From Candidatus Parcubacteria bacterium (GTDB lineage Bacteria > Patescibacteriota > Minisyncoccia > Phycocordibacterales > CAIZLB01), in NCBI GenBank assembly GCA_039795775.1, contig JBDKLC010000006.1, forward strand, positions 3,772 through 67,771: a stretch of DNA of 64,000 bases, given 5' to 3'. The translations under genes were made by a program, and so were the position numbers. This document shows positions 11,901-62,641 of the stretch, in pieces. The notes beneath the pieces were generated by a model. The model saw nothing but the letters and a program-made list of their open reading frames with translations, had not been told where the DNA came from and made no database searches. Numbering within the stretch: the stretch's first letter is position 1; the number at the start of each line of letters is the position of its first letter.

Positions 11901-14900
11901 TCCAGCGCCTCCATTTCCTGCAAAAACACCGTTACCACCATTTCCTCCGTTACCAGCGATTCCACCGTTTCCTCCTGCTCCGCCAGAAAGTGTCAAACTT
12001 CCTGTTGAGTATGAATCTTTAACAATTCTTGTTGTTTCGTTTCTACCAATAAATCCTCCACCATACCCAATACCACCAGCACCTCCAGATGTTGCAGCTC
12101 CACCAAGACCACCGTTTGCTCCAGCGCCTCCTGATCCGACAGCACCGTTTGCACCGTTACCTCCTGTGCCTCCAGTACCTCCAGTTCCGGCAGTTCCAAC
12201 TACATTTGAAGTTGAATACGAGTTGAGCTGAACTGTTCCGTCATTTCTACCAATAAGTCCTCCAACATATAAAGTACCAGCAGCTCCTGCAGCACCAGCT
12301 GAACCACCCGCACCTCCAGTCGAAGCGATTCCTGCGGCCCCTCCATTTCCACCTGTTCCTCCTTGTCCACCGTTACCACTTGTTCCTGTTACAGTTGTAC
12401 CAACAGCATAACTTGTAGTAATCGTGTTTAAAGCGTTCACGTTGTACCCAATAAGACCACCAGCATAACTATCACCGCCAGCTCCGGCTGCACCACCAGT
12501 AGCTCCTGGCCCACCAATACCAGCACTCAAAGATGCATCAGCACCATTTCCACCTGTTCCTCCTTGTCCACCATTTCTTGCAAGTGATGTAACACTTCCT
12601 GTTGCATACGAATTCAAAATAACTCCGGTTGCAGCATTAATTCCAACAAGTCCTCCGGCATACGATGCTCCTCCGGCTCCAGTTGTTCCAACGGTTCCTC
12701 CCGCAGCACCTGTTGTTACTGTTCCACTCGTACTTGCTCCTCCGGCTCCACCAGTTCCTGCAGTACCAACATTTCCACTTGTTGATGTGACATTTCCTGT
12801 TGCATAAGAAACACTTTCAATAATTCCTCCACCAGCAAGAGCGGCTGTTCCATTTGTTCCAATAAGTCCACCGGCATATGCAGCACCTCCAGCTCCAGAT
12901 GCACCTCCGGCTCCACCAACACCTCCAATAGCTGCTGTTCCACCAGCGCCACCAATCACACCATTAGCACCATTTCCACTAGCACCTCCCACAGCATTTA
13001 CTGCACGTGTTGAATAACTTGTTGTAATTTGTAAGTTGTTACTTGCTGTTGCATTGGCTTGTCCAACAAGTCCTCCAGCATATGCTGCTCCTCCAGCAGC
13101 ACTCGCACCAGATGCACCTGTTGCTCCTCCCGCAGCGGCGACTGCTCCTCCTGCCGTTGATGTTCCTGCGCTTCCGCCATTTCCTGATGCACCACCAGTT
13201 GCAGTAACACTTCCTGTTGTTGAGTAATTATTCACATAATGAATAAATCCAGTTGTAACGCTTGTTAGTCCGACGAGTCCGCCAGCGTCAGCTTCACCTC
13301 CAATACCTGACGCTCCTCCAGCCCCGCCAGCACCACCGATTGTTCCTCCTGTTCCACCGTTTCCACCTAAGTTTCCAGTTGCACCAACACCACCTCGAGC
13401 ACTCACTAAACCTGTTGAATACGAACCCGTAATATCACTTTGTGCAGGCGTTGTCGTGATTCGGTGAATACCAATAAGTCCACCGGCATATGCAGCACCT
13501 CCAGCAGGTGGAGTAAGTACAGCTCCACCTCCCGCTCCTCCAGCAGCACCAGATGCTGACGCTCCACCATTTCCACCAGTTCCTTGAGTTCCTCCATTAC
13601 CTCCAGTTGAACTTGCGAATCCTGTTGCATAAACAGATATGTAATCAATTGAACCAGTTGTTAAGTTGCTGAATCCAACAAGTCCACCGGCATCAGCCTC
13701 ACCACCCACTCCGGCAACACCACCCAAACCTCCAGTTGCACCTGCGTGTGTAGAACTTCCCGTAGAACCATTTCCTCCAACACCTCCAGCACCACCGTTT
13801 CCACCAGTTCCACTTGTAACAGAAATATTTCCAGTAGCATAAGAATTGTTAATCTGCATCACTTGCGTTGTTCCTGTGATACGACCAACCAAGCCGCCAC
13901 CATATGTAGCAGCACCCGCGCCTCCAACCCCTCCAACCCCAGCAACAGCAGCGGTTCCACTTGACTGACCTGAACCTGATGTACCTCCTGTTCCTCCCGC
14001 GCCTCCATTTCCTCCGTTACCACCTGTTACAGAAATATGTACGGTTGAATATGAACCTCCTTGAATTGATCCTATTGTTGAAAGATAATCACCGACAAGC
14101 CCACCGAACGCACGGATACCTCCAGCACCTCCTGCGCCGCCAACAGCACCCACACCTCCGTTGTTTGCTCCAACACCGGCTCCACCGTTTCCTCCAGTAC
14201 CTCCGTTGCCTCCGTTTTGTTCAGTTCCTGAAATAGTTAACGTGTCAGCATATGAAGATGTGATAACTCCAGAACTAAATCCAATAAGTCCTCCAGCAAA
14301 AGCTCCAGATGATGCGCCTCCGACACCCGCAGTACCAAGACCTCCAGCTCCACCAACGCCGCCAGCTGCAAGTCCTGAACCTCCGTTTCCTGCATTTCCA
14401 CCATTTCCTGCTGATCCACCTGTAACTGTGATATTACCTTTTCCTGAGCCAGCATCGAAACTAGCGTAGGAAGAAATAACATCAGCTGTTGAATATCCAG
14501 CGAGACCTCCAGCATAAATAATTCCAGACGCACCTCCTGCGCCAGGTACACTTCCTGCAGCTCCAGTGTTTGCACCTGCAGAAATACCAGCAGATCCATT
14601 TACACCAGAACCACCTGTCACTATCAATGAAGTTTTTGAAAATGACGCAGCTTCAATAACACCGGTTGTATATCCAACAAGTCCTCCTGCATATACTGCA
14701 CCTCCGGCGCCTCCAGCTGCTCCCGCACCTCCAACACCATAAACTGCACTACCAGTTCCAATTCCACCTGTTCCTCCAAGAGCCGCAGCTCCACCATTTC
14801 CACCTGTTGCAGTTACCGTTCCTGTTTGTGCGTAACTTGTAGTAATAGTTCCCAAAATATTTTGACCAACAAGACCTCCGGCTTGCACTGATGCAGCAAG

Positions 14901-17900
14901 TGTAATAGCAGCTGCACCTCCAGCTCCTCCTGCACCTCCCGCACCTCCAATATGGTTTGTACCTAATGATCCATCACCACCTGCTCCACCAACGCCTCCA
15001 GCTCCTCCGTTACCACCGACAGCAGTCACGCTGGTTGTGGCGTACGAATTTGTAATACTTGCAGAAACAGCTGTAACACCATTTCTACCAACGAGTCCTC
15101 CAACAGAAACTGCACCACCAACACCTCCAGCTGCACCTGTACCTCCAGCTGCAGCAGTACCGTTTGTAATAGATCCCGAAGCACCTCCGGCTCCACCGGC
15201 ACCACCATTTCCTCCATTTCCACTTGTTGCAGTAACAGAACCACCAACATGATATGAGTTCAAAATTGCAGATGTGTTGTCACCAACCAATCCTCCGGTG
15301 AAGTTAACACCTCCAGCTGCGCCAATAGTTCCAGAGGTTCCAGCTGTACCAGCTACAGAAGAACCCCCAGCTCCTCCTGCACCTCCGGCACCTGAGTTTC
15401 CTCCGTTACCTGATGTTCCTTGTATAGTTCCTGATGAAAATGAATTAACAATATCACCTGAAGTTACTAAGCCAACCAACCCTCCAGTATATGACGCACC
15501 TCCAAGACCAGCTCCACCTCCAGCTCCTCCGGCACCTCCAACTTGTCCAGCTCCACCAGTTGCACCTGCTCCACCATTTCCGGCATTTCCTCCGTTACCT
15601 GCAACAACCGTAACATTTCCAGATGCTGTAGATGATGCAATTGCAACAAGTGTGTTTGTAAAACCAACAAGTCCTCCACCATATGCAAATCCTCCAGCAC
15701 CTCCAATACCACCGTTACCACCAGCTCCTCCGACAACAGCACTTATTGCAGCAGCACCCGCGCCTCCAACTTGTCCTGTTCCACCGTTACCACCATTAAC
15801 TGTGATATTCCCTGTAGCATATGAATTTACAATATTTTGTGCAGCACCAGAGTTGTAACCTTCAAGTCCTCCTGCATAAACAGCAAGACCGACAGCACCA
15901 CCTCCACCTCCAGCTCCTCCAGTACTTCCAGCTGCACCGTTTACACCTGCAACTCCTGCGCCTCCGGCTCCTCCATTTCCTGATGTTACTGTGACGTTGT
16001 TTGTTGAATAGACTGTATCGATAAGTACAGATACAAGTGAACTAAATCCAATTGCGCCGCCAGCATACACTGGACCAACAACACCGCCAGTTCCTCCTGC
16101 ACCTCCTACTCCATTTCTTCCACTTCCAGACCCACCAACTCCTCCCGCACCTCCGGTTGCTCCGACACCACCATTTCCTCCAACTGTAACAGTGATAGTG
16201 CCCCCAGTTGCACTAGATTTTTGAATATTACCGTTTCCTTGCCCAACAAGTCCTCCAATATATACTGCGCCTCCAGAAGATCCGGCGCCTCCCGCACCTC
16301 CAATTCCTCCCGCGTGACCTCCTGTGCCGAGAGATCCGTTGCCTCCAACTCCACCAACTCCACCATTTCCTCCATTTCTTCCAACAGCAGTTAGACTTCC
16401 AATAACTACTGAATCAACAATTACTCCTGAGTTATCACCCGCAAGTCCTCCTATATATGCAGCGCCACCGATACCACCAGCACCTCCGGCTCCGCCAGTT
16501 GCACCAGCACCAGCAGCAATATTTCCTGATGCTCCCGCATTTCCTCCAGTACCTCCAGTTCCAGGAACTCCACCCAACGCAGTAATAGATGTAATTGTAT
16601 AAGTCACATCATGAATTACTCCGGCATTAAATCCGAGTATTCCACCACTTGCAGCAAGTCCACCGTTTCCTCCAGCACCAGCTGCACCTCCAACACCTCC
16701 AATTGCGCCAGCTGTACTTCCGCCATTTCCTCCGTTACCTCCTGTAGCTCCGTTTCCACCAGCTCCTCCAAGAGAAGCTACTGTTCCTGTTGTATTTGGA
16801 ATTGAGATTGTTGTACCGAGTACAGTGTCGTTACCAATAACGCCTCCCGCATACGCTGCGCCTCCTGTAAAACCTGATCCACCTCCAACACCCGCAACTC
16901 CAACGACACCAGCGCCACTTGCTCCGCCATTTCCTCCGACACCACCGTTTCCTCCGGCGCCTCCATTTGCATACACACTTCCACTTGCATATGAATCAGA
17001 TGCAACTGATCCCGAGTTAAAACCAACGAGACCTCCTGCAGCTGCGACACCTCCAGAAACTCCGGCACTCCCTGCTACACCTGTACCTCCACTGAACGCA
17101 CCAGTCGAAGAACCTCCTGAACTACCTGCAAGACCATTTGCACCAGCACCTCCAGTCGATGTTGCGTTACCACTCGCGTATGACGCTCCTTGAATAATTC
17201 CGTTTGTAGAGTTGAATCCAATCAAACCACCTGCATATGCGACACCACCCACGTTTGTTCCTGCTGCACCAGCTGCACCTCCTGCTCCTCCAGCAGAAAA
17301 GCTACTTGCTCCACCGTTTCCTCCAGAACCGTTTGAACTTCCAGCGCCACCAGTTGCAATAGCATTTCCTGTTGCGTAAGAATTATTTATTACACCTGTA
17401 TTGATTCCCACAGCGCCTCCGGCATAACTCGCTGCACCAACAACACCAATACCACCAGTACCTCCAACTGCGCCTGTTCCTGCCGCACCACCATTTCCTC
17501 CAACACCTGAAGTTCCAGAAGTAGAACTCGCAAGTATAAATGAGTGAGAATTATTTATTGTTCCCGCAGAGTTAAAAGCAATTATTCCTCCGGCGTATCC
17601 AATGGCGCCAGCTCCACCTGCTCCACCAGTTCCACCGATTGCACCAAGCGCTCCTGTTCCAGCAGTTCCTCCAGCGCCTCCATTTACTCCGGCTCCTCCG
17701 TTACCTCCAATAACAGTTGCAGCTCCAGATTCAATATATGTATTTATAATAATTGCTGTGTTTAATCCTGCGATACCTCCGGCATATCCAACTGCACCCG
17801 CACCACCAGCACCTCCAGCGGCTCCTGCAGCACCAGTACTTGAAGATCCTCCTGTAGCATTACTTCCACCAAGCCCTGCTGCTCCTCCATTTGCTCCAGC

Positions 17901-20900
17901 AGAAGCTGTAGCAGAAATAATTCCACTTGCGTAAGAATTTTGAATTGTGTTTGTGTTGTTACCGACAATTCCTGCAGCATATGCAATTGCTCCTGCACCT
18001 CCGGCTCCACCGGCACCACCCACGGCTCCTGCACCAACAAATGTTCCTACTGATGCTCCACCGTTTCCACCAATTCCTCCAACCTGAGCAATTCCGGCAA
18101 CTGAAGTTATATTTCCAGTTGAATATGAAGAAGCTTGAATAACACCAGCACTCTGTCCAACAACACCACCTGCTGTTGAAACGGCGCCAGCACCGCCCGC
18201 ACCGGCTGTTGCACCAACACCTCCCGCAAAGTTTGTTCCACCAACACCACCATTTCCTCCGTTACCAGCAGTACCTCCATTACCAGCATCCACAATAATA
18301 TTGCCTGTATTGTAACTTGCAGAAACAGTTCCCAACACGATGTTACCTGCAACACCTCCACCAAAAGCAGCACCGCCAGTTCCTCCAGCAGCTCCTGCTC
18401 CACCTGCACCTCCAGTGTTTGAAGTTCCAGCACCACCATTTCCTCCGTTACCACCAGCTCCACCGTTTCCTCCATAAGCTGTGATAGTACCTGATGAATA
18501 TGAATTTGAAATTTCACCGTTGTTCAAAAAACCAACAACACCTCCAACATATGAAATACCTCCAGTTGATCCAACACTTCCAGCAACTCCTGCAACACCC
18601 GTAGTAAATGAATACCCATCACCACCACTTGCACCTGCACCTCCGGCACCAGATGTACCTGTTACGTCTCCTGTTGAATATGAATTTAAAATAGATGTTC
18701 CTGTATTGTGTCCAACCACACCACCGGCATAAACGATTCCTCCTCCGACAGCAGCTCCTGCTGCACCTCGTGTACCTCCAGTCCAAGCACCTCCAGCACC
18801 TCCCACTCCCGCAGCACCGCCCGCTCCTGCTGTTCCAGTGATTGCACCTGTTGTATGAGAACTATTAATTATAGAAAGAGTGCTGTTACCTGCAATTCCA
18901 CCAATATATAAAATACCTGCAGCCCCTCCGGTACCTCCAGCAAGTCCAGCGAGTCCTGTCTGTGCAGCGACTCCAGTTCCACCTGTTCCACCAGCACCGG
19001 CTTGGCCAGTCACAGCATTTGTAGACGAAGTATTTTGAATTACTCCCGTATTACTTCCAACAAGGCCTCCAGCATATGTAGCAACTACAGCAGCAGATCC
19101 TCCAGTTCCAGATGCACCTCCGGCACCAGATGTACCAGCTGAACCTTTTGCTCCTCCTGCTCCACCTATTCCACCAGTTCCTCCAGCACCACCAGTCACA
19201 GTAACAAGTCCAGTAGTTGAACTTGCAGAAGTAATTATTCCAGAATTTAATCCAACAAGTCCACCCGCATATGCTGCTCCTCCAGCTCCACCGTTTCCTG
19301 CGGCACCTCCAGCACCTCCAGTTCCAGAAGTTGTTAATGCAGCACTACCTCCTGCACCTCCGGCTGTTCCGTTTTTTCCAGCAGAACCTGTAGCAGTAAC
19401 AGCACCCGTTGCATAAACAGTAGATGATGCACCAGTAATAACTCCTGAAATACCATTTTGTCCAACCAATCCTCCGGCGTATGCAATTGCTCCAGCTCCA
19501 CCAGCACCTCCGGCTGCAGTTCCACTTGATGCTGCAACAGCTACTGAAGCTGCTGCTGATGCACCACTTGCGCTACCGGCTGAACCATTACCCGGTGTTC
19601 CACCAAATGCTTGCACAATACCTGTTGCATAACTTCCGTTCAGGATTGTGCCAGAGTTGTTTCCAGCAAGACCTCCGGCATACGCTGTTCCAGCTGCTCC
19701 ACCAGCAGCTCCTAATGCACCAAGCCCACCAATGTTTGCACCTCCGACACCAGTTCCAGCGTTACCTCCGTTACCAGCTGTTCCTGCATTTCCTCCCGCT
19801 CCACCTCTTGCTGTTACATTTCCAGTACTAAAAGAAGTTGAAACTGTTCCCGCTTGAATCCATCCGACAATTCCACCGACATATGCAATGTTACCCGCAC
19901 CGGCGCCTCCGGCTGCACCTCCGGCTCCACCGATACCAGTTCCAACTCCTGCAACAGAACCGTTTCCTCCATTTCCTGCGTTACCACTTGCACCTCCAGC
20001 TCCACCTGTTCCAACAACTGTTGCAGAACTTGTTGCAGTTGTAATACTTCCTTGTTGAGAATATCCGACAACACCTCCAACATATGCAAGACCTCCGGTT
20101 GCAGCAGCGTTGTTTGCCGCCGCTGCACCAGTTCCTCCTGTAGTTGCACCGGTTGTTGTGTTACCTCCGTTTCCACTATTTCCTCCGGCACCTCCTGATC
20201 CTCCTACACCGTTAATAGTTCCGGCAACACTTACATTTGTAATTGTTCCTGTGTTGTATCCAACCAAACCTCCCAAATACAAAGTTGCTCCAGCAGTACC
20301 GGCTCCACCAGCTGTACCACTTGTCGGTGTTGCACCATCTGATCCGTTTGTACCGGTTGTACCAACTGTGCCTGCAGTACTTGTGGCAGAAATAGAAACA
20401 CCAGAGAGAGTTACATCTTTAATAAGGTTTGTAGAATATCCAAAAAGACCGACATAACTCGACGTTGTTGTACTGATATACAAATTATTAATCGCAAAGT
20501 TGTTACCATCAAAAATACCTGCAAATGGAGTTGCGACGTTACCGATTGGATCAAACCCAACACCAGAACTCCAACCACTTGTAGTAGCGGCATCAATATT
20601 GTTATTGAGTTTAAATGAGCTCGACAAGTTTGTCTTCATTCCCTGCAAACCATACACATCAAAAACAATAAATGGATCTGAACTGATTCCAATTCCTGTA
20701 TATCGTCGGAATGTTCCAGCTGTGATAGAAAAACTTCCTGATACTGACAATGTGTTTGTTCCAGGATCAGTGGCAGTAAAAGTCGCCGCAGAAACTTGTG
20801 CATAGTTTCCAGATTGTCCTCCGGAATTTGTAATTGTAAGGTTAGCGTTTTGGAGAATAGTGCCTGTAAAACCATTAATAGTGAGAGAGCCTATAGTTCT

Positions 20901-22175
20901 CGCACTATCTATAGTAGCTGTCACAGCCGCGCCTCCTGATGTAGCATCGAAGAAAACGTTTGTTGTGGCATCAGGCAAGTTACCAGCTCCTGGCGCACCA
21001 CCCGATGTTGCTGCCCAGTGGTTTGCAGCATCAGACCAGTTTCCAGAGCCACCAACCCAATACGCATTTGCTGGTGGGTCAGTAATAAAATCGATATCTA
21101 CATTTCCAATAACTTTTAAATCAAATACGTCTGTCGATGTAGCAAGTCCAGAAAGATTGATTCGATACTTACCGTCCTGGTTAATAGTTGCAAATGTTCC
21201 GACGAGTGTTCCATCGAGTGTATACACTTCTATAGTTGCTGGTAGATTTGCATCCGTTGGTCGTGCATACAATGTTATGTCTCTTGTACTATCAAGTGGT
21301 TGTTCAAAAGTAACACGTACATACTGACCATCTAAAATACTTACATAATTTCCATCGCGCACTCCCACACCTGAGAAAATATCTTCAATACTATTTTTAT
21401 CTGCATCAAGTCGCAATGCATTCGAAATTAAAATAATCTGGAAAGTTTGTGTTGAAAGGTGTGGAACAATCCATGCGAGGTGATCAATATATCCATCACC
21501 ATCTTCATCAGTTGCGACAAACTGAATGTCTTCATTTCCATTGTTCTGCCATTTAATTTTTATCTGACTTTCTTGACCCACTTTAAAAATTTCTGGTATT
21601 TCTGTTTTTACAGGAACATCAGTCAAGTGTGCAATTAAGTCTTGTTCTGGTGTCGACGCAACAACCACAACTTTTCCGGCTGCATTATTTTCTTCTGTGA
21701 TGATTACTGATGATGTTGCAAAACTTGTTGTAGTGGTTGCACTTGTTGAAGTTGTTGAAGTTGACTCAAATGAACCGCCTGCAGTTACCCCATTAGAAAT
21801 AGGTGCAGATGAAGTAGACATTAAAAGTGCACTTTCTGTACTTGTTGAAATATCTTCTGCTGGAGTTGATGTAGAACTTGAAGAACTGTTTTCAGTAGGT
21901 GTCGATGTTGCTGTAGATGTAGAGATATCTCCAGTGTTTTCAGTTGTTGTAACTGGAGTGTCTGACACATCTGAAGTGTCAGAAGTGTCTTCTGCTGGAG
22001 TTGTCGGTTCAGGTACAGAAACAGTGTCAGTCGCTGGTGAAGAAACTTCAGGCACAGTTGCTTCTACGACAGGAGTTGGATCTTCTTCAGCAAATGCGGT
22101 AGAGAAAAAACCGCAAAATATAATTGCTGAGATTAAAAAAACAAATAACTTTTTGCGACGTGTCTGTGCGTGCAT
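5916..22175 (-). CDS. Giant secreted surface fibre/adhesin-like protein (5,419 aa): signal peptide, Ser/Thr/acidic stalk, beta-helix-like N-domain, ~50 GLUG-like Gly-rich repeats, 15 FN3 repeats, unknown beta module, C-terminal dockerin
   Basis: A single uninterrupted ORF. The N-terminus MHAQTRRKKLFVFLISAIIFCGFFSTAFA is a signal peptide. Repeats follow the pattern Y[AV]GG[LIV][VIA]G.N.G.I.NSY[AS]TG.V, spaced by GGAGG/GNGG runs. Fifteen ~90-aa repeats follow the form PDAPT..TAV.GNGQATI.FT.PVSNGGS.I..YTVTSNTGGFTATGG.SPI.ITGL.NG..YTFTV.A.N..GTS. The last ~65 aa read DLNGDCKVNSVDFSIMLAFW...DINRDGKVDSVDFSILLYQW, a duplicated Ca-binding dockerin signature. Confidence 0.85.
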   Translation of the reverse strand: MHAQTRRKKLFVFLISAIIFCGFFSTAFAEEDPTPVVEATVPEVSSPATDTVSVPEPTTPAEDTSDTSDVSDTPVTTTENTGDISTSTATSTPTENSSSSSTSTPAEDISTSTESALLMSTSSAPISNGVTAGGSFESTSTTSTSATTTTSFATSSVIITEENNAAGKVVVVASTPEQDLIAHLTDVPVKTEIPEIFKVGQESQIKIKWQNNGNEDIQFVATDEDGDGYIDHLAWIVPHLSTQTFQIILISNALRLDADKNSIEDIFSGVGVRDGNYVSILDGQYVRVTFEQPLDSTRDITLYARPTDANLPATIEVYTLDGTLVGTFATINQDGKYRINLSGLATSTDVFDLKVIGNVDIDFITDPPANAYWVGGSGNWSDAANHWAATSGGAPGAGNLPDATTNVFFDATSGGAAVTATIDSARTIGSLTINGFTGTILQNANLTITNSGGQSGNYAQVSAATFTATDPGTNTLSVSGSFSITAGTFRRYTGIGISSDPFIVFDVYGLQGMKTNLSSSFKLNNNIDAATTSGWSSGVGFDPIGNVATPFAGIFDGNNFAINNLYISTTTSSYVGLFGYSTNLIKDVTLSGVSISATSTAGTVGTTGTNGSDGATPTSGTAGGAGTAGATLYLGGLVGYNTGTITNVSVAGTINGVGGSGGAGGNSGNGGNTTTGATTGGTGAAAANNAAATGGLAYVGGVVGYSQQGSITTATSSATVVGTGGAGGASGNAGNGGNGSVAGVGTGIGGAGGAAGGAGAGNIAYVGGIVGWIQAGTVSTSFSTGNVTARGGAGGNAGTAGNGGNAGTGVGGANIGGLGALGAAGGAAGTAYAGGLAGNNSGTILNGSYATGIVQAFGGTPGNGSAGSASGASAAASVAVAASSGTAAGGAGGAGAIAYAGGLVGQNGISGVITGASSTVYATGAVTATGSAGKNGTAGGAGGSAALTTSGTGGAGGAAGNGGAGGAAYAGGLVGLNSGIITSASSTTGLVTVTGGAGGTGGIGGAGGAKGSAGTSGAGGASGTGGSAAVVATYAGGLVGSNTGVIQNTSSTNAVTGQAGAGGTGGTGVAAQTGLAGLAGGTGGAAGILYIGGIAGNSTLSIINSSHTTGAITGTAGAGGAAGVGGAGGAWTGGTRGAAGAAVGGGIVYAGGVVGHNTGTSILNSYSTGDVTGTSGAGGAGASGGDGYSFTTGVAGVAGSVGSTGGISYVGGVVGFLNNGEISNSYSSGTITAYGGNGGAGGNGGNGGAGTSNTGGAGGAGAAGGTGGAAFGGGVAGNIVLGTVSASYNTGNIIVDAGNGGTAGNGGNGGVGGTNFAGGVGATAGAGGAGAVSTAGGVVGQSAGVIQASSYSTGNITSVAGIAQVGGIGGNGGASVGTFVGAGAVGGAGGAGGAGAIAYAAGIVGNNTNTIQNSYASGIISATASAGANGGAAGLGGSNATGGSSSTGAAGAAGGAGGAGAVGYAGGIAGLNTAIIINTYIESGAATVIGGNGGAGVNGGAGGTAGTGALGAIGGTGGAGGAGAIGYAGGIIAFNSAGTINNSHSFILASSTSGTSGVGGNGGAAGTGAVGGTGGIGVVGAASYAGGAVGINTGVINNSYATGNAIATGGAGSSNGSGGNGGASSFSAGGAGGAAGAAGTNVGGVAYAGGLIGFNSTNGIIQGASYASGNATSTGGAGANGLAGSSGGSSTGAFSGGTGVAGSAGVSGGVAAAGGLVGFNSGSVASDSYASGSVYANGGAGGNGGVGGNGGASGAGVVGVAGVGGGSGFTGGAAYAGGVIGNDTVLGTTISIPNTTGTVASLGGAGGNGATGGNGGNGGSTAGAIGGVGGAAGAGGNGGLAASGGILGFNAGVIHDVTYTITSITALGGVPGTGGTGGNAGASGNIAAGAGATGGAGGAGGIGGAAYIGGLAGDNSGVIVDSVVIGSLTAVGRNGGNGGVGGVGGNGSLGTGGHAGGIGGAGGAGSSGGAVYIGGLVGQGNGNIQKSSATGGTITVTVGGNGGVGATGGAGGVGGSGSGRNGVGGAGGTGGVVGPVYAGGAIGFSSLVSVLIDTVYSTNNVTVTSGNGGAGGAGVAGVNGAAGSTGGAGGGGGAVGLAVYAGGLEGYNSGAAQNIVNSYATGNITVNGGNGGTGQVGGAGAAAISAVVGGAGGNGGIGGAGGFAYGGGLVGFTNTLVAIASSTASGNVTVVAGNGGNAGNGGAGATGGAGQVGGAGGAGGGAGLGGASYTGGLVGLVTSGDIVNSFSSGTIQGTSGNGGNSGAGGAGGAGGSSVAGTAGTSGTIGAAGGVNFTGGLVGDNTSAILNSYHVGGSVTATSGNGGNGGAGGAGGASGSITNGTAAAGGTGAAGGVGGAVSVGGLVGRNGVTAVSASITNSYATTSVTAVGGNGGAGGVGGAGGDGSLGTNHIGGAGGAGGAGGAAAITLAASVQAGGLVGQNILGTITTSYAQTGTVTATGGNGGAAALGGTGGIGTGSAVYGVGGAGAAGGAGGAVYAGGLVGYTTGVIEAASFSKTSLIVTGGSGVNGSAGISAGANTGAAGSVPGAGGASGIIYAGGLAGYSTADVISSYASFDAGSGKGNITVTGGSAGNGGNAGNGGSGLAAGGVGGAGGLGTAGVGGASSGAFAGGLIGFSSGVITSSYADTLTISGTEQNGGNGGTGGNGGAGVGANNGGVGAVGGAGGAGGIRAFGGLVGDYLSTIGSIQGGSYSTVHISVTGGNGGNGGAGGTGGTSGSGQSSGTAAVAGVGGVGGAGAATYGGGLVGRITGTTQVMQINNSYATGNISVTSGTGGNGGAGGVGGNGSTGSSTHAGATGGLGGVAGVGGEADAGGLVGFSNLTTGSIDYISVYATGFASSTGGNGGTQGTGGNGGASASGAAGGAGGGAVLTPPAGGAAYAGGLIGIHRITTTPAQSDITGSYSTGLVSARGGVGATGNLGGNGGTGGTIGGAGGAGGASGIGGEADAGGLVGLTSVTTGFIHYVNNYSTTGSVTATGGASGNGGSAGTSTAGGAVAAAGGATGASGASAAGGAAYAGGLVGQANATASNNLQITTSYSTRAVNAVGGASGNGANGVIGGAGGTAAIGGVGGAGGASGAGGAAYAGGLIGTNGTAALAGGGIIESVSYATGNVTSTSGNVGTAGTGGAGGASTSGTVTTGAAGGTVGTTGAGGASYAGGLVGINAATGVILNSYATGSVTSLARNGGQGGTGGNGADASLSAGIGGPGATGGAAGAGGDSYAGGLIGYNVNALNTITTSYAVGTTVTGTSGNGGQGGTGGNGGAAGIASTGGAGGSAGAAGAAGTLYVGGLIGRNDGTVQLNSYSTSNVVGTAGTGGTGGTGGNGANGAVGSGGAGANGGLGGAATSGGAGGIGYGGGFIGRNETTRIVKDSYSTGSLTLSGGAGGNGGIAGNGGNGGNGVFAGNGGAGANAGASATGAAGGVKYGGGFTGYNLGTISTVYSVGAVSVTGATGGAGGNGGNGGNGGTGGATGAGGAGGNQGVTADAGNGGALHAGGLIGYNFTAGVVSNSWTAGTVTTVGGNGGAAGVRGTSGTGGNGGTLAGGAGGAAAGGSGGGTGGASIAGGLIGSNISTGSFSNSYASTTVTMTGGNGAAGGTGGKGGSGGVGGSGGSGNGGAGQPGLSGGTGGAGGAVTGGGLVGDNTGTITNAYALGNVTATAGSAGFGGAGGAGGNGGAAGGGIAGANGNGGNGTIGGAGASAFVGGLLGSHATSLVTNAYSAGVPTATKTSGAVGGAGGSAGTGGTGGSNGSTGATGSSGLLQYAGGIVGNPVSGTWASSYWDTTTSGKTDGAGNATTPTNTSGKTTTQMEAQATFTNWDFTTLPIWNIDEAVTYPYFNYQVAPDAPTNIVAVAGNGQATITFTPPANTGGGQILSYTVTSSPGGFTATSGGSPITITGLTNGTTYTFTVTATNANGTSISSATSNAVTPATIPDAPTIGTATGGNGQATITFTPPVSNGGSSILYYTVTSNTGGFTATGGSSPIVVTGLTNGQTYTFTVKATNAAGTSTASATTNSVTPATVPNAPTGVTAVAGNGQATITFTPPVDNGGASISYYTVTSNTGGFTATGGSSPIVVTGLTNGQVYTFTVTATNSAGTSTASSVSNSVTPATVPDAPTGATAVSGNGQATITFTPPVSNGGSAITYYTVSSNTGGFTASGNGSPRTITGLTNGQAYTFTVTATNGVGTSTASTASNSVTPATVPDAPTSITAVRGNGQATISFTAPVSNGGSSILYYTVTSNTGGLTTSGTSSPLIVTGLTNGQAYTFTVTATNAVGTSSASVASNSISPATVPDAPTIGVATAGNGEATVTFTPGASDGYSSVLYYTVSSNTGGFVVHSGASPVVVTGLTNGTTYNFTVTATNAVGTSSPSIASNSVMPVTTPGAPTGVSAVSGNGEATISFTAPVSNGGSAITYYTVTSNTGGFTATGGSSPITITGLTNGTTYTFTVTASNAYGTSTQSATSNSVTPATVAGAPTGVSAVRGNGEATISFTAPVSNGGAAITSYTVTSNIGGFTATGGSSPIVVTGLSNGTTYTFTVTANNAVGTSASSTASNSVTPATVPDAPTSVTAVRGNGEATITFNAPVSNGGSAITSYTVTSNVGGFTATGGSSPITITGLTNGTTYTFTVTATNSVGTSTPSATSNSVTPATVPDAPTSVTAVSGNGQATISFTAPVSNGGSAITYYTVTSNTGGFTATGGNSPITITGLSNGTTYTFTVTASNAVGTSTVSGTSNSVTPATVPDAPTSVSAVSGNGQATITFTPPVSNGGSTILYYTVNSNIGNFSVSGGNSPITITGLSNGTAYIFSVTATNAVGTSSASVASNSVTPATVPDAPTSVTAVSGNGQATISFTAPVSNGGSAITLYTISSNTGGFIATTTTSSAIVSGLSNGTTYTFTVTATNALGTSTASVASNSVTPATAPDAPTSVTAVSGNGQATITFTPPVSNGGSAITSYTVTSNTGGFTASGGSSPITVTGLTNGQAYTFTVTATNALGTSTASVVSNSVTPATVPDAPTNVAATIGDQSAGVTWSVPASNGSAIQYYTVTSNTGGFTATSSTNSIVMNGLTNGVTYTFTVTATNALGTSVSSGSSGGVTPATIPGAPTNLAATVQDSSIDLSWTAPISNGGSALTDYVIEYKLSSGGTWAVFNDGVGTTPATTVTSLSNDNSYDFRISAKNVIGTSTASSIVSATPGAPAQVLIQSFSSLVVPTISTNVRITNEGSIAYEYQYTWCVTDSSSNECGGGDDIFSSTAAKLIQPGANFDTTLNSTVPVAGNYYFHFKVLFGSDSSSANQSFTAVTTTPVTPPTGGTGGSGGGGGGGSSPAPVSIPIPTGMKCAITGADLNGDCKVNSVDFSIMLAFWKTSAPFKNQGVDINRDGKVDSVDFSILLYQWGKTPIAFKKQ
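5919..6130 (-). other. Dockerin module (two calcium-binding repeats) at the C-terminus of the giant protein
   Basis: DxNxDGxVNSxDxxxL appears twice, separated by about 22 aa, with a Gly-rich linker upstream. Confidence 0.6.
6560..10640 (-). repeat. Tandem coding repeat array: 15 fibronectin-III-like units, 270-bp period, high inter-unit nucleotide identity
   Basis: The string ggtgcatcagg(a/c)acagt(g/c)gctggtgt(t/c)ac recurs every 270 bp (about 6826, 7096, 7366 ... 10593). The protein carries 15 in-frame FN3-like units. Confidence 0.8.
10810..20460 (-). repeat. Gly-rich GLUG-like repeat array (~50 units of ~40-60 aa) encoded by GGN-codon-rich DNA
   Basis: About 50 occurrences of the YAGGLVG.N.G.I core are separated by GGAGGAGG/GNGGNGG tracts. 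The plus strand is correspondingly CCN-rich, which generates spurious Pro/Ala ORFs. Confidence 0.75.
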
Positions 22176-24726: not shown

Positions 24727-24890
24727 GGGGAGACTAGGGCTCGGTCACAGGTCTCGCAGACATGCTGCTCGCCTGCGACCCAGCCTCCTTGCCGCGCTTC
24801 GCCGATGTTATTAAGTCCAAAGTATACATCGTGCCGGCTCACTGCGCGACTTCGTCCGGCTTTCTCGCCGTCAGTCTTTCAGAGCAAAAA
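24727..24890 (-). repeat. tRNA-associated ~200-bp element, copy 1. It ends in a 15-nt duplicate of the tRNA-Gln 3' end (GAGCCCTAGTCTCCC) preceded by CCTGTGACC and a conserved ~55-nt core.
   Basis: The core ggtcacaggtctcgcAgacatgcTgctcgcctgcgacc(ca)gcctcctt is near-identical to 39843..39896. The flanking duplicate matches tRNA-Gln positions ~58-73. Confidence 0.5.
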
Positions 24891-24892
24891 TA

Positions 24893-24916
24893 AAAACCGC
24901 TAGGTTAGCGGTTTTT
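24893..24916. terminator. Bidirectional rho-independent terminator hairpin (aaaaaccgcta ggt tagcggttttt)
   Basis: A perfect 8-bp GC-containing stem flanked by an A-run and a T-run, directly 3' of tRNA-Gln. Confidence 0.5.
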
Positions 24917-24923
24917 ATTTTGC

Positions 24924-24997
24924 TGGCTGGGAGACTAGGGCTCGAACCTAGATTAATGGATCCAGAGACCATTGTCCTACCATTAGACGATCTCCCA
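24924..24997 (-). tRNA. tRNA-Gln (anticodon CTG)
   Basis: Minus-strand TGGGAGATCGTCTAATGGTAGGACAATGGTCTCTGGATCCATTAATCTAGGTTCGAGCCCTAGTCTCCCAGCCA. U1:A72, a cloverleaf fold, anticodon loop CUCUGGA, a TTCGAGC T-loop, and an encoded CCA. Confidence 0.75.
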
Positions 24998-39764: not shown

Positions 39765-39801
39765 GACTCTTTACTCAACTTTATATATAAAAGAAAAAAC
39801 A

Positions 39802-39828
39802 GGCTATTGCCTGTTTTTTCAAATGCGC
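39802..39828. terminator. Bidirectional terminator hairpin (aaaaaacaggctattgcctgttttttc)
   Basis: An 8-bp stem flanked by an A-run and a T-run. Confidence 0.45.
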
Positions 39829-39842
39829 GGTGAATGGGACTT

Positions 39843-39996
39843 GGTCACAGGTCTCGCCGACATGCGGCTCGCCTGCGACCCCGCCTCCTTCGTAGCAATT
39901 CGCTTCGCTCATATAGCTACTTCAGTCCGGCTTTCAAGTCCCTGTATCAACTCGTAGAAAATTAAAAGACCGAGCAGAAGCTCGATCTTTTAATTT
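39843..39996 (-). repeat. tRNA-associated ~200-bp element, copy 2. It ends in a 17-nt duplicate of the tRNA-Asp 3' end (AAGTCCCATTCACCGCG) preceded by CCTGTGACC and the conserved core.
   Basis: Core ggtcacaggtctcgcCgacatgcGgctcgcctgcgaccccgcctcctt. Two of the three differences from copy 1 are compensatory within a GC(A/C)G...C(T/G)GC stem. It shares tccggctttc and a post-tRNA hairpin with copy 1. Confidence 0.5.
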
Positions 39997-40073
39997 TGGC
40001 GCGGTGAATGGGACTTGAACCCACGACCTCTCCCGTGACAGGGGAGCGCTCTAACCAGCTGAGCTACCACCGC
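39997..40073 (-). tRNA. tRNA-Asp (anticodon GTC)
   Basis: Minus-strand GCGGTGGTAGCTCAGCTGGTTAGAGCGCTCCCCTGTCACGGGAGAGGTCGTGGGTTCAAGTCCCATTCACCGCGCCA. Anticodon loop CUGUCAC. CCA encoded. Confidence 0.8.
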
Positions 40074-40182
40074 ATGCGTTTATATCTCTATATACCAGAC
40101 AATACCCAAAAGGTATAGACTGTTTCGATATTATACATAAAATTCGGTATTTTCAAAGTATTCAAAGTAATAAAATGAAAAG

Positions 40183-40218
40183 CGCCGGCCCACGTCGAAG
40201 ACGTGTGGCCGGCGCCTG
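40183..40218 (-). terminator. GC-rich rho-independent terminator after the 40281..41468 gene
   Basis: The stem gcgccggccc.acg / cgtg.tggccggcgc is followed by ttttcatttt on the minus strand. Confidence 0.5.
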
Positions 40219-40280
40219 ATATTCACAGCAATATGCTCAGACTCCCCTGAGGAAGCCTCTGTTGGTTTTCGGTAAGCGGA

Positions 40281-41468
40281 CTACCCTTCCTTCTTCGGCG
40301 TTTTGCCGACGAACCGGATTGGCGGGCAAACCACCGTGGGTTTTTCCGAGTAGTAGTTCGGGCGGACCCAGTATCCAAACGAGTTAATCCAGATCATCTG
40401 ATCAGGGCGGAAGGTCAGAGAAACCAACGGTGGATTATTCTTGTCGTAGGTGCCAAATCGCCCCGTAAACTTGAAAGTCGTCGTTCCCTTGTCGAACTGC
40501 AGTGTGAGGCCTTTGAAGAGCACCTTAACGCGCCCCTCCGAAAGCTTAAACTGTGGCTTCACAGGTTTCGTGCCTTGGACGATGACGTTGTTGTCATCGA
40601 CGATTCGCACATCAACCAGACCGGCGAAGACTTTGGGGTCTTCGGTGTTCGAGACAAGCTCGAACTCCGGGTCGGTAACGGAGATTGCAGTCCCAGTTAC
40701 CTCGACAGACAGAGCGCCAAGCACAACAGGTTTGTTCGACGACACGATGGTCGGCGAAATATTTTGTTGTGCACTGACCACCACTCGCCCATATTGATAG
40801 CTATTGGGACCAACGCGGTGTTCGTTGCCATACATGACCGCGTCATACATCCAGCTGATCTCTGTGTTTTCATCGACGTCCAGATAGGACACCCACGACC
40901 GGAAATTCGTGCCAGTATACTGCCACGAGTTGAAGCTGACATGAGCATACACGACGTATGTCTTCTGAGCCGTAGCCGAAAAGACGAGATCGTTTTCGAT
41001 CGGGATTCGCGCATACTGCGTCACTGGTTCCACAGATGGAACCGGGACTTCAATGTATGCCAGGCCAACGCCGACAGGAACCGTAGTTGTTTGTTGATAG
41101 GGCAAGTTGAGATGCCCTACGACGCGGCTGCGGATGTTGTGGTAGGATTTAACACCTCCCGCTTTATCCGTAACATACGTCACGGTATCCTCCTCCGAGA
41201 CGACCATGAGCTGGTCGACGACGTTCGGCATGGATTCCAAGCCGATGTTGATGGCGTTGACTGACGAGGGTCCGCTTCCCTTTTCAAAGAGAATGCGGAG
41301 CACTTCGTGATAGGTGCCACCATATACGGTGGAACTTTCCGCTTGCGTGCCATTGACGACACGAAGCGTGCTGTTGGCGACGGCCGCGAACGGCGAAGCC
41401 AAGGTTACGAGGGCTGCGATGATCAGCGCAATGAAAGCGCTGAGGTTGACTTTGGGTTTTTTCTGCAT
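40281..41468 (-). CDS. Hypothetical secreted protein (within GC-rich island)
   Basis: 395 aa with a signal peptide (LVTLASPFAAVANS). Local GC of about 50-55% against the ~40% backbone. Confidence 0.45.
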   Translation of the reverse strand: MQKKPKVNLSAFIALIIAALVTLASPFAAVANSTLRVVNGTQAESSTVYGGTYHEVLRILFEKGSGPSSVNAINIGLESMPNVVDQLMVVSEEDTVTYVTDKAGGVKSYHNIRSRVVGHLNLPYQQTTTVPVGVGLAYIEVPVPSVEPVTQYARIPIENDLVFSATAQKTYVVYAHVSFNSWQYTGTNFRSWVSYLDVDENTEISWMYDAVMYGNEHRVGPNSYQYGRVVVSAQQNISPTIVSSNKPVVLGALSVEVTGTAISVTDPEFELVSNTEDPKVFAGLVDVRIVDDNNVIVQGTKPVKPQFKLSEGRVKVLFKGLTLQFDKGTTTFKFTGRFGTYDKNNPPLVSLTFRPDQMIWINSFGYWVRPNYYSEKPTVVCPPIRFVGKTPKKEG

Positions 41469-41727
41469 GATAAAAAACCGGCTTGGAGCCGGCGGTTGTT
41501 AGTTAACTTTGGGTTATACGTTTTGAAACGCCCAAGATTATCCACGACAGCTCCGAGCAATTGCTATGAAGTTGTAAAGGACAATAAAAAACCGCCATTC
41601 GGCGACTTACTTGAGCTGTATATATAATAGCACAAATGTGTATAAATGTAAATAGTACTATTTAAAGCATTGTTATAGACGTATTTTGACTAATCCACAC
41701 CACACCTTGACAACAGTTGACATGTGT

Positions 41728-41756
41728 CCTAATATATCTGGAGTAGGTTGTTGAAC
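41728..41756 (+). promoter_or_regulatory. Sigma70-like promoter (TTGACA-17 bp-TAATAT)
   Basis: A consensus -35 and a near-consensus -10 with a 17-bp spacer, about 300 nt upstream of the 42054 gene. Confidence 0.35.
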
Positions 41757-42053
41757 CTACATCGATTGAAAATTAAAGTTAGTAAACCCGGTCACACGGT
41801 TCCGCGGCGAAGTATACGACCCTCCCTTCCAAGGTCATTCTTCGCTCCTCAAACAAGTTTGGAAATCTATTTTGTAAATTTGTAGAGTGATAGCTCGCGA
41901 ATAATTGATAGTCTTTAGCTGCTATGCCATTTTGCATACACTTACGTTATTTTACGCGTACATTCAGCTGAAGAGTATCGGTTCTCTCTCAGTACAGATA
42001 CCGAAAGGTTCTGTTCTTAATCGAGGTATATAGCACATCACAATTACATAGGC

Positions 42054-42389: not shown

Positions 42390-42431
42390 TGCACAACACA
42401 CAATCAACAACCAAAGAAAGGAATACACGAA

Positions 42432-43571
42432 TTGAAACGCATTGCAACGGAACCTCGCCAAGAGTGGCGACAAAAAGTAGAAGAAGCAGGTCTCATTTTT
42501 CACACGACGCCGGAAGGTGTCTACTGGAATGAGGCAGCTCACTACTCGTTCAGTATGGGTGAGGTCCTAATGCTCGAACAAGTAACCAACGACCTTCACG
42601 CCATGTGCCTTCAAGCGGCACAACACGTGATCGACAAAAACCTCTTTGCCCAACTGGGCATTCCTCCGAATGCGGCGGAACTCATCAAAGAAACATGGGA
42701 AGAGGAACCGCCTGCCATTTATGGGCGATTCGATCTCGCATACGACGGCATTCATCCGCCGAAAATGCTGGAATACAACGCTGACACACCGACAAGCCTT
42801 TTAGAGGCAGCGGTGGTGCAGTGGTTCTGGCTTCAAGAGCTTGATCCTGGAAGTTTGGCACAATTCAACTCAATTCATGAGCGACTCGTCGCAAAATGGA
42901 AAGAACTAAAAAGCTACATCAAGGGTTCAACACTCTATTTTGGCCACGCGGGAACGCACGAGGATATTATGACCATTGCCTACATCGCTAACACGGCGAT
43001 GGAAGCTGGTATTCATACGCAAGAAATTGCGATGAAAGATATTGGCTGGGAACGCCAACGTCATCACTTTGTCGACCTCAGTGGTCGGCAGATTGGAAGT
43101 ATCTTCAAGCTCTACCCGTGGGAGTGGCTTGTCCATGAAGAATTCGCACCGCAGCTCTCTGAGTCGCGCAAGAAAACACAATGGATTGAGCCTGCATGGA
43201 AAATGTTGCTGTCCAACAAAGGGATTCTCCCGATCCTCTGGCAACTTTTTCCCAACCATCCGAATCTGCTTCCCTGCTACTTCGGCGACCCTCATGGAAT
43301 GAAAGACTACGTGCGCAAACCTCTTCTCTCACGAGAAGGTGCAAACGTGGAAATTTACTCTAGCGGGACCATCGTCGAATCGCAGGGTGGTGACTATGGC
43401 GAAGAAGGATATGTGTGCCAAGCGCGCGCAGTTCTTCCTAACTTCAATGGAAATTATCCAGTTATTGGAAGCTGGGTCATTGACGGCGAAGCGGCTGGCA
43501 TGGGAATTCGTGAAGCAGACACCCTGATCACTGGAAACCTGAGCCGTTTCGTGCCTCACCGTATCGACTAG
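42432..43571 (+). CDS. Glutathionylspermidine synthase-like (pre-ATP-grasp, YgiC/YjfC family) protein
   Basis: 379 aa. The blocks RQEWRQKVEEAGLIFHT, YWNEAAHYSF, GRFDLAYDG...EYNADTPTSLLEAAVVQW and ILPILWQLFPNHPNLL are characteristic of the GSP synthetase C-domain family. Confidence 0.65.
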   Translation: MKRIATEPRQEWRQKVEEAGLIFHTTPEGVYWNEAAHYSFSMGEVLMLEQVTNDLHAMCLQAAQHVIDKNLFAQLGIPPNAAELIKETWEEEPPAIYGRFDLAYDGIHPPKMLEYNADTPTSLLEAAVVQWFWLQELDPGSLAQFNSIHERLVAKWKELKSYIKGSTLYFGHAGTHEDIMTIAYIANTAMEAGIHTQEIAMKDIGWERQRHHFVDLSGRQIGSIFKLYPWEWLVHEEFAPQLSESRKKTQWIEPAWKMLLSNKGILPILWQLFPNHPNLLPCYFGDPHGMKDYVRKPLLSREGANVEIYSSGTIVESQGGDYGEEGYVCQARAVLPNFNGNYPVIGSWVIDGEAAGMGIREADTLITGNLSRFVPHRID

Positions 43572-43645: not shown

Positions 43646-43657
43646 TTGTTTTTATAT

Positions 43658-62375: not shown

Positions 62376-62468
<93 letters not shown>

Positions 62469-62641
62469 GTCTGTGCAAGGTTCGTTCACGAACCTGAACA
62501 GACATATAGGATTGTGGGGATTCGAAAGCCGGAACGAATTGCCAATGTCGCAACAGCGACTGGCACAAGTGAGGCGGGGTCGCACAAAATTTCTGTAAGA
62601 AATTTATGTGTGACCGAATCCTTTGTTACAATAAAATATAC

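Follow-up and report, generated by a model that had tools for sequence, protein, structure and literature searches.

Introduction

Islands at transfer RNA (tRNA) genes classically show a direct repeat of the tRNA 3' end that extends from the T-loop to the terminus. Among RNA-guided systems, known omega RNAs overlap the gene of their nuclease, and in Crenarchaeota the T-loop position 56/57 is a known site of non-canonical introns. Here, we describe a short element behind the tRNA-Gln gene in a 64,000-nt stretch of DNA (the window), which is part of a 190-kb contig of a Candidatus Parcubacteria metagenome-assembled genome (MAG; JGI 3300043397). The element is a conserved, paralogous, structured RNA in tRNA sense, whose closing helix and tail copy the neighboring tRNA from position 57 onward. 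We know of no described analog of a conserved RNA that lies beside a tRNA and carries the 3' half of that tRNA. The family is apparently undescribed, and so far it has been found only in Parcubacteria/Paceibacteria-type bacteria from the candidate phyla radiation (CPR).

A sequence-only reading of the locus had proposed a miniature tRNA-targeting element that is shared with the tRNA-Asp locus and bears the footprint of a site-specific integrase, with three options for the insert: a strongly reduced integrative element, a non-autonomous partner of an integrase located elsewhere, or a structured RNA gene. This interpretation as a whole is partly supported, as the following sections show.

Layout of the Element and Its Copies in the Window

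Every copy has the same layout. A tRNA gene is followed by a palindromic, terminator-like hairpin (hairpin A), 10–25 nt of spacer, a scaffold and a tRNA-derived segment. A second terminator (terminator B) often follows this segment, being present in about half of the copies and absent in several. The insert measures 150–210 bp, and the distance from tRNA to element ranges from 69 to 86 nt across loci. The scaffold (70–120 nt) forms a three-way junction, starts with GAAAGCCGGA and ends with GUGACC. The base after GUGACC is always tRNA position 57, so that the join corresponds to T-loop 56/57, right after the GTTC of the real tRNA. The tRNA copy spans position 57 to positions 73–76 of the upstream tRNA. 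A perfect identity run of 15–20 nt is found in 14 of 25 copies; the remaining copies have one or two mismatches or indels, or keep only 5–7 nt. The tail ends in N73-CA or CCA with a hairpin coming next in about half of the copies.

The window holds three copies, behind tRNA-Gln, tRNA-Asp and tRNA-Ser(GCT), with copies 1 and 2 on the minus strand. Their parts are as follows, in window coordinates; R1 is a covariance model of the family, and P1, P2 and P3 are the helices of the three-way junction.

24924..24997, minus strand: tRNA-Gln(CTG), cognate of copy 1 (ARAGORN; Rfam tRNA model, 58.8 bits)
24884..24923, minus strand: hairpin A of copy 1, a 40-nt palindromic, terminator-like sequence (GCAAAATAAAAACCGCTAACCTAGCGGTTTTTATTTTTGC) between tRNA and element (sequence)
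24864..24883, minus strand: 5' strand of P1 of copy 1 (ending in AGACUGACGGCGAG), partner of the tRNA-derived 3' strand (single-sequence and consensus folds, pair counts)
24743..24863, minus strand: scaffold of copy 1, beginning with AAAGCCGGAC, with a long variable extension of P2 and an alpha-type P3 ending in GUGACC (R1)
24781..24743, minus strand: core of copy 1, GGGTCGCAGGCGAGCAGCATGTCTGCGAGACCTGTGACC (sequence)
24742..24728, minus strand: 3' segment of copy 1, GAGCCCTAGTCTCCC, equal to canonical positions 57–71 of tRNA-Gln (15 nt identical, 16 with the shared C56)
39997..40073, minus strand: tRNA-Asp(GTC), cognate of copy 2 (ARAGORN; Rfam tRNA model, 67.3 bits), with a promoter-like site at 40156..40128
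39958..39996, minus strand: hairpin A of copy 2 (AAATTAAAAGATCGAGCTTCTGCTCGGTCTTTTAATTTT; sequence), also kept in the related locus L026
39935..39957, minus strand: 5' strand region of copy 2, in which GGGACUUG pairs with CAAGUCCC of the 3' segment (folds)
39843..39934, minus strand: scaffold of copy 2, with a UGAGC-GAA-GCGAA tip on P2 and an alpha-type P3 (R1, pair counts)
39881..39843, minus strand: core of copy 2, the core of copy 1 with one pair exchanged with compensation
39842..39825, minus strand: 3' segment of copy 2, AAGTCCCATTCACCGCGC, equal to positions 57–74 of tRNA-Asp (18 nt identical)
39793..39820, minus strand: terminator B after copy 2 (terminator scan)
62376..62467, plus strand: tRNA-Ser(GCT), cognate of copy 3 (ARAGORN)
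62511..62631, plus strand: copy 3, in which the 5' strand is GGGGAUUC, P2 is a variant and P3 is of the beta type (R1, 64.4 bits, E = 3.5e-18, where E-values of R1 are rough by design)

The R1 matches to copies 1 and 2 cover 24727..24877 (90.2 bits) and 39827..39948 (124.3 bits), respectively. In copy 1, the segment between hairpin A and the core is GC-rich. The 39-nt core has two matches in the window vs. 0.00 expected from shuffles, and the two cores differ solely by an A-U to C-G exchange that affects both sides of a hairpin, which establishes the observation as real. Furthermore, 11-mers of the tRNA-Gln and tRNA-Asp 3' ends recur in the window at these two sites only. The sequence-only reading was thus correct that a duplicate of the tRNA-Gln 3' end adjoins a conserved core, and that the same core lies next to tRNA-Asp with a tail taken from that tRNA. 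It placed the first duplicate at tRNA-Gln positions ~58–72, and in fact the duplicate starts at canonical position 57, or 56 with the shared C. Both of its loci are real, but it overlooked the third copy behind tRNA-Ser(GCT). Copy 3 is more divergent than copies 1 and 2 and has a fold z-score of −5.8. Its junction, GUGACC|GAAUCC, lies at 62615/62616, and its tail keeps 6 nt (GAATCC) of tRNA-Ser, with P1 held by G·U pairs and an extension.

A further tRNA-Ser gene, with the anticodon ACT (A34), is located at 62642–62731 (plus strand), 10 nt past the end of the R1 match to copy 3. It is uncommon for bacteria to encode A34 in tRNA-Ser, and deamination might convert this base to inosine.

As had been stated, the insert contains no protein-coding open reading frame (ORF), and all ORFs that extend across the core are antisense and spurious. 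Gene callers sometimes annotate the frame that the GC-rich element leaves open on its antisense strand, which makes the resulting peptide (MRLACDPASF...) usable as a search handle. "Hypothetical proteins" of 38–45 aa (P0121–P0123) have been called antisense to the element at 24762–24893 (plus strand) of the window, at 1065–1181 of locus L017 and at 2147–2284 of locus L018. Such calls over the element are annotation artifacts, and the RNA element explains spurious "hypothetical protein" entries in public CPR annotations.

Distribution of the Family

Relatives were collected by DNA patterns, by a peptide search with the antisense ORF and with R1, which was built from 20 sequences. These routes led to ~27 copies on ~20 metagenomic or MAG contigs, nearly all of them behind tRNA genes, so that the core is not limited to two loci devoid of a wider tRNA association. 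At least 14 kinds of tRNA lie upstream of a copy and in the same orientation, including those for Gln, Asp, Ser (four anticodons, with GCT, CGA and TGA among them), Ile (TAT, GAT), Trp, Val, Tyr, Glu, Arg, Leu and Gly. A relaxed core pattern run against 185,579 species genomes returned two true relatives, L006 behind tRNA-Ile(TAT) and L004 behind tRNA-Trp; among the matches to the core pattern in genome contigs, eight of ten were random GC-rich sequence. The peptide search returned L017, a strain variant that lacks 16 nt of the P2 tip and is otherwise the same as copy 1, and L018, where two copies stand in tandem behind tRNA-Ser. A pattern derived from the 5' half of the scaffold yielded 17 true metagenomic loci, and R1 found additional copies, arrays among them.

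Several other searches were negative. The strict P3-core pattern had no match in metagenome contigs, and the P3-core pattern had none, or one random match, in viral contigs (IMG/VR). No match was obtained by blastn against phage and plasmid collections, and a walk along the source contig revealed no copy beyond those known. Rfam 15, searched with gathering and E-value thresholds, returned tRNA models only; the best sub-threshold matches on the Asp copy are unrelated small RNAs (E ≥ 0.01) far below their gathering scores. Searches of the literature on delocalized CRISPR RNAs (crRNAs), on target-adjacent motifs (TAM) and the T-loop, on CPR non-coding RNAs (ncRNAs) and on tRNA-like three-way junctions yielded nothing that describes the family. 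TIGR-Tas was considered and is unrelated, as it uses 36-nt tandem guides.

In three loci (L026, L027, and L029) an adjacent tRNA seemed to be absent. This proved to be due to later insertions that separate the tRNA from hairpin A, and in L029 the cognate tRNA-Ile lies 1 kb upstream with the inserted DNA flanked by GCACAAA. The insertion in L029 (178–1100) comprises ~960 bp with a 123-aa ORF, L027 (2470–7517) holds an island with restriction-endonuclease-like, Fic and large helicase-like genes, and L026 (940–1060) carries another insertion, each between the tRNA 3' end and hairpin A. In these genomes, the outermost 3' end of the tRNA is thus an integration hot spot of its own.

Fold and Covariation

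The element folds into a three-way junction. P1 pairs the 5' strand of the element with the tRNA-derived 3' strand and is connected to P2 by J1/2, which reads GAAA. P2 opens with GCC-GGA...GA-GGC and consists of GCC/GGC, an internal loop (GGACUGAAG/CGAAGGA) and a covarying stem. It ends in a variable hairpin, often with a UGAGC-GNA-GCGAA tip, or in a variable extension, and minimal versions lack the loop or the tip. P3 (GGGGUCG...GUGACC) has a conserved base, GGUCG/UGACC, and interchangeable distal parts of three types (alpha, beta, and gamma). Standard pairs are formed in 84.5% of cells, vs. 76% in shuffles and 30–46% with slid partners. Thirteen pairs are changed on both sides, and four of the six pairs of P2b covary. 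The base of P3 holds a G·U pair that does not vary (20 of 20 sequences); since it would be a C-A mismatch on the opposite strand, the RNA is in tRNA sense. Divergent variants adopt the same three-way junction, with fold z-scores from −3.1 to −5.8.

P1 is specific to the cognate tRNA. At its variable positions, 55 of 90 cells pair, compared to a permutation mean of 42.6, and only 6 of 5,000 permutations reach 55. The 5' strand of P1 has thus co-evolved to pair with the tRNA copy. In one member of the tandem pair behind tRNA-Ser (L018-E1), the 5' side is the exact acceptor 5' strand (GGAGACG) plus the T-stem 5' strand (GAGGG) of tRNA-Ser. The helix of acceptor and T-stem is perfect in L018-E1 and L022; most copies have 5–10 bp only.

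The structured RNA gene, one of the options named in the sequence-only reading, is supported by the compensatory changes, the invariant G·U pair, the ~95% conservation between orthologs (see below) and the 5' end that covaries with the tRNA-derived strand. An ordinary remnant of tRNA duplication had been considered as an explanation of the tRNA matches, and the covariation and conservation data contradict it. In its general form, this explanation takes the copies as leftovers of tRNA gene duplication or as inert integrase scars without any RNA function. Decay is evident in some copies (L021, L034, and unit two of L036), but covariation, the invariant G·U pair, a scaffold more conserved than its flanks and a junction shared by at least 14 tRNAs leave this explanation hardly any credence.

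The pairing of the insert flanks resembles that of tRNA exon halves, and L018-E1 even keeps the acceptor and T-stem 5' strands of tRNA-Ser. Hence, the element might be viewed as an insert at T-loop 56/57 of a truncated second tRNA, removed like an intron or trans-joined as in split tRNAs. However, the upstream "exon" lacks the D and anticodon arms in all copies, which means that no decodable tRNA could result. ARAGORN and Rfam detect no second tRNA in the 10–25 nt between hairpin A and scaffold, an intact tRNA lies next door and the 5' strand pairs with loop nucleotides 57–60, which is not tRNA geometry. With no bulge-helix-bulge motif apparent and bacteria as hosts, we regard an intron-like origin as highly improbable.

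Four further structural or coding candidates were examined and dismissed. The junction strands do not fit a hammerhead-like core. A similarity of GAGAAAGCCGG to P4 of RNase P has neither a pairing partner nor an Rfam signal. A small ORF behind AAGGAGG has a spacing of 22 nt and is absent from beta- and gamma-type P3. In P2, the bulge of a would-be canonical k-turn is not next to tandem G·A pairs, and the motif is absent in L025 and in the Ser copy of L006.

Two side observations concern related structures. In L034 (6703–6821) and L032 (388–535), an extra covarying hairpin (GGCGAUCAGAGGAUCGUGCC and GGCAAUCACAGGAUUGUGCC, respectively) is located between GGAGGC and P3 and results in a four-way junction. 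Moreover, long perfect palindromes with stems of 15–20 bp, including A and T tracts, also follow tRNAs without an element, at 43734–43868 and 43580–43657 (minus strand), downstream of two tRNA-Met genes. A short GAAAG...GUGGCC|AAAU string downstream of the second of these (tRNA-Met2) could be the remnant of a deleted element.

Evolution of the Copies

The Trp loci L004 and L030 are orthologous. Their tRNAs are 92% identical, and the hairpin A flanks and a downstream promoter-like box are conserved. The scaffold is ~95% identical with compensated changes in P2b, and the 3' segment matches at 17 of 18 positions, whereas neither the spacer on the 5' side of the scaffold nor the one downstream is alignable. 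The scaffold and the tRNA copy are thus under purifying selection and vertically inherited. Moreover, the tails follow tRNA differences between genomes, even at the unpaired T-loop positions 59 and 60, as seen for tRNA-Ile(TAT) in L006 vs. L029 and for tRNA-Gln in the window vs. L031.

The copies also exchange P3 modules, at times duplicate into arrays, and some decay. From hairpin A through the tail, the Asp copy of the window differs from L026 solely in 24 nt of distal P3, where alpha is replaced by beta. P3 types tend to be alike within genomes, as in the Gln and Asp copies of the window, in both copies of L006 and in both copies of L032. The swapped P3 of L026 and the likeness within genomes indicate exchange among paralogs. 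Arrays are found in L018, L021, L032, and L036, with the more distal units more decayed. In copy 3 of the window and in L018-E2, tRNA identity is lost beyond 6–7 nt, and a long P1 is kept by G·U pairs and new complementarity. Behind the same tRNA, the scaffold subtype can differ between genomes.

Possible Mobility and the Search for a Partner Protein

Many of these traits would be expected of a non-autonomous mobile element that inserts at the tRNA T-loop and whose RNA serves its own propagation. A free form made of the scaffold, tRNA positions 57–76 and hairpin A might recombine with the tRNA gene by means of a recombinase encoded elsewhere; alternatively, a staggered cut would leave a target duplication of 16–20 bp. 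The insert is bounded by a direct repeat of the tRNA 3' part (the exact 15–20 nt runs, with 15 and 18 nt in the window), and a terminator like those of tRNAs comes after the distal copy, which in this respect looks like the original end of the tRNA. In four loci (L004, L006, L023, and L025), the distal copy has the CCA and the functional gene does not. The arrays with their decayed distal units and the different scaffold subtypes behind the same tRNA fit this idea as well, and other insertions use the tRNA 3' ends of these genomes (L029, L026, and L027).

However, no integrase or transposase was found in any neighborhood examined. At least 14 tRNA species have the junction at one and the same nucleotide, a range that ordinary integrases do not reach, and the element would need both a tRNA-specific copy of the 3' end and a tRNA-specific complementary 5' strand. 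The vertical inheritance of L004 and L030 implies selection on the "scar." Being under selection and part of the RNA fold, the tRNA copy is not a passive attR scar. The tail of L018-E2 is unlike that of the adjacent tRNA and yet pairs with its own 5' strand, and hairpin A resembles the native terminators of element-free tRNAs. An integrase or target duplication predicts an empty-site junction of GGGTTC|AAGTCCCATTCACCGCGCATTTGAAAAAACAGG, and mobile DNA predicts a circle junction of ...CCTGTGACC|AAGTCCCATTCACCGCGCCAAAATTAAAAG; among the relatives fetched, neither an empty site nor an excised form was found. Relatives identified via FtsX and YecM homologs (L013, L014, and L042–L048) do not conserve the synteny and thus gave no empty site, and the strain variants L017 and L040 carry the element. 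On balance, we consider mobility possible but rather unlikely. The integrase footprint that the sequence-only reading saw in the locus was accordingly not confirmed: the integrase looked for is absent from the window proteins scanned and from all neighborhoods examined, and the same junction nucleotide is used at at least 14 tRNAs.

The search for a partner extended to other enzymes. Pfam models applied to 30 window proteins gave no integrase, transposase, OrfB_IS605 or other nuclease, and an all-against-all BLAST of ORFs from 20 loci identified no shared or plausible partner protein. Near any copy examined, there is no gene for an integrase, transposase, TnpB/IscB/Cas12, tns product, IS110 or reverse transcriptase. 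A 395-aa ORF upstream of tRNA-Asp was considered as TnpB and is a secreted protein.

These results also bear on the idea that the element is a guide RNA, in which a scaffold and a 3' guide of 15–20 nt serve an RNA-guided protein encoded elsewhere (TnpB/Cas12-like, a protein akin to those of CRISPR-associated transposons (CASTs) or a bridge-RNA-type recombinase). Such an RNA would read the DNA of the tRNA gene with the invariant T-loop GTTC as 5' TAM or protospacer-adjacent motif (PAM). The order of a conserved scaffold and then a hairpin abutting a variable 3' segment is consistent with this idea, and the segment equals a DNA target that GTTC always flanks on the 5' side. Identity kept at T-loop positions that are unpaired in the tRNA favors reading by a complementary strand, and P3 is homogenized within genomes, like repeats matched to a cognate protein. 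On the other hand, the 8–12 PAM-proximal nucleotides are sequestered in P1 by a co-evolving 5' strand, and tnpB, iscB, cas12, tns, and IS110 genes are missing near every copy. The target would be the intact neighboring tRNA gene, which amounts to self-targeting; the tRNA-element distance (69 to 86 nt) shows no CAST-like fixed spacing, and copies with decayed guides keep the structure. We therefore consider a guide RNA improbable.

A three-way junction closed by P1, after which about half of the copies have a terminator with a gene behind it, is reminiscent of a cis-regulatory leader (riboswitch or attenuator) that would use P1 and terminator B as expression platform for the downstream gene. 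The downstream genes are, however, mutually unrelated (a membrane protein and YecM, a 170-aa protein, a pilin-like protein or another tRNA), several copies lack terminator B and the identity of the tail with the tRNA would be left without a reason. Taken together, there is very little to recommend a leader function.

A Model for the Function of the RNA

The reading that we favor, if tentatively, is that the copies form a new paralogous family of chimeric RNAs with a tRNA tail that act as RNA, with mimicry of the cognate tRNA 3' half as the preferred role. The RNA may be made by read-through of the tRNA transcription unit or from an unrecognized promoter. Hairpin A, with its perfect stem of 15–20 bp, could act as a leaky bidirectional terminator or as an RNase III-type processing site at which the RNA is released. 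The 3' end would be matured like a tRNA 3' end, as the sequence of N73-CA followed by a hairpin occurs after both the tRNA and its copy. The RNA might then act in trans by mimicking or accompanying the 3' half of its cognate tRNA specifically; a putative factor would bind the scaffold, and P1 and the tail would present the acceptor and T-arm 3' strand of one tRNA. An existing copy might recombine with a tRNA gene at the T-loop junction (...GACC|GA vs. ...GTTC|GA) and give rise to a new copy, and a DNA-level origin of this kind is possible.

Several observations weigh against such a mimic. Hairpin A resembles a terminator, and the transcription of the element itself is thus inferred; moreover, promoter prediction gave no sigma-70-like site in the stretch from hairpin A to the element. 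The acceptor-like P1 is imperfect in most copies, which argues against a faithful minihelix mimic, and P1 pairs T-loop nucleotides 57–60, which is not the case in a tRNA. Nor would a pure mimic have to adjoin its cognate tRNA or match it at positions 59 and 60. Copy 3 and L018-E2 keep P1 without tRNA identity, suggesting that the identity may reflect the birth of a copy rather than its function. Finally, no partner factor was found in the neighborhoods or among the window proteins.

Tail identity at unpaired positions, adjacency to the cognate tRNA, the arrays and the CCA found only in the distal copy at four loci keep a mechanism that reads DNA or one of its strands under consideration. In a view that we judge unlikely, each RNA of the family is part of a recombination or homing system that is programmed by RNA and specific for the T-loop, or else is a companion to its cognate tRNA, which it senses or repairs. 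The scaffold would recruit a protein encoded elsewhere in the tiny genome, and the P1 strands, which are sense and antisense to tRNA positions 57–68, would read the tRNA gene or the tRNA. Such a system would explain the fixed 56/57 junction, the identity at unpaired T-loop positions and the P3 "handle" that is homogenized within genomes. If true, it would constitute a new class of RNA-guided system that lands on the universal T-loop.

If the element is indeed a functional RNA, as in the favored mimic, an ultra-small CPR clade keeps beside many of its tRNA genes a folded RNA that carries the tRNA's own 3' half. This would indicate that organisms with minimal genomes have an unrecognized level of tRNA biology, be it mimicry, surveillance, processing or repair. 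Should the element be mobile or RNA-guided, the universal T-loop GTTC would mark the landing site of a compact system that is naturally retargetable and already shows at least 14 natural specificities. In either case the RNA family is new, and the alignment (A5) and R1 can be used for a census.

Other Features of the Window

The minus strand contains an ORF of 5,419 aa (5916–22175), which probably encodes a repetitive giant surface protein. Its central part (~11–20 kb) has a GC content of 0.50–0.53 and a skew of about −0.35, compared to a GC content of 0.32–0.45 in the surroundings. A block of elevated GC content (0.47–0.51) at 40001–44000 may have been acquired. It holds the two tRNA-Met genes, the 395-aa secreted protein, which has no Pfam match (40281..41468, minus strand), and a glutathionylspermidine-synthase-like gene (42432..43571, plus strand). 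A type IV pilus/type II secretion system (T2SS)-like cluster at 53212–60749 (minus strand), with PilM, PilO, two T2SSE ATPases, T2SSF and a response regulator, is typical of CPR episymbionts.

Comparison With Known Systems

The closest analogies are tRNA-gene islands, omega RNAs, crRNAs of type V-K CASTs, tRNA-like ncRNAs and archaeal introns, and each of them shares only one or two traits with the element.

tRNA-gene islands and cis-mobilizable elements that tyrosine integrases insert into tRNA genes (T-loop sublocation, P4-like) have the same direct repeat of the tRNA 3' end, leave the tRNA intact and form tandem arrays. In contrast, the insert described here is only 150–210 bp long and devoid of an integrase, and it uses one junction nucleotide in at least 14 tRNA species. 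In addition, its "attR" repeat is part of a conserved RNA fold, paired with a co-evolving strand and under selection.

The omega RNAs of TnpB and IscB (OMEGA) and PATE-like derivatives of IS200/IS605 likewise have a structured scaffold across the junction of element and flank, and a 3' segment of 15–20 nt that equals adjacent DNA beside a short constant motif, here GTTC. They differ from the present family in that no tnpB or tnpA gene is near or overlapping here and that the upstream neighbor is always a tRNA gene with a hairpin. Moreover, the 3' segment is partly paired within the RNA, the "target" duplicate lies upstream and there is no similarity in Rfam or in sequence. The homing crRNA of type V-K CASTs also has a 3' variable part that matches the 3' part of a tRNA gene and is encoded downstream of the tRNA. 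Here, however, cas12k, tnsB, tnsC, and tniQ are absent from the window and the related loci, as are Tn7 ends, a CRISPR repeat and a fixed spacing, and dozens of paralogs address different tRNAs instead of one homing spacer.

Archaeal non-canonical tRNA introns, including those at 56/57, and split tRNAs share the fixed insert in the T-loop, the many tRNA contexts and the stem-like pairing of the flanks. The host "tRNA" of the present element is truncated and bacterial, though, with no bulge-helix-bulge motif and with an intact tRNA upstream. Finally, the location in a tRNA unit is shared with the tRNA-like domain of transfer-messenger RNA, the bacterial Y-RNA-like YrlA, plant dicistronic tRNAs with small nucleolar RNAs and tRNA 3' external spacers. 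The likeness to these tRNA-linked ncRNAs extends to an acceptor- and T-arm-like sequence and a tRNA-style 3' end, and the RNA may similarly recruit tRNA-processing enzymes. In the family described here, by contrast, the 3' strand (57–76) alone is tRNA sequence and an exact copy of the neighboring tRNA, T-loop positions 54–56 are replaced by a two-hairpin domain and each genome holds many cognate paralogs.

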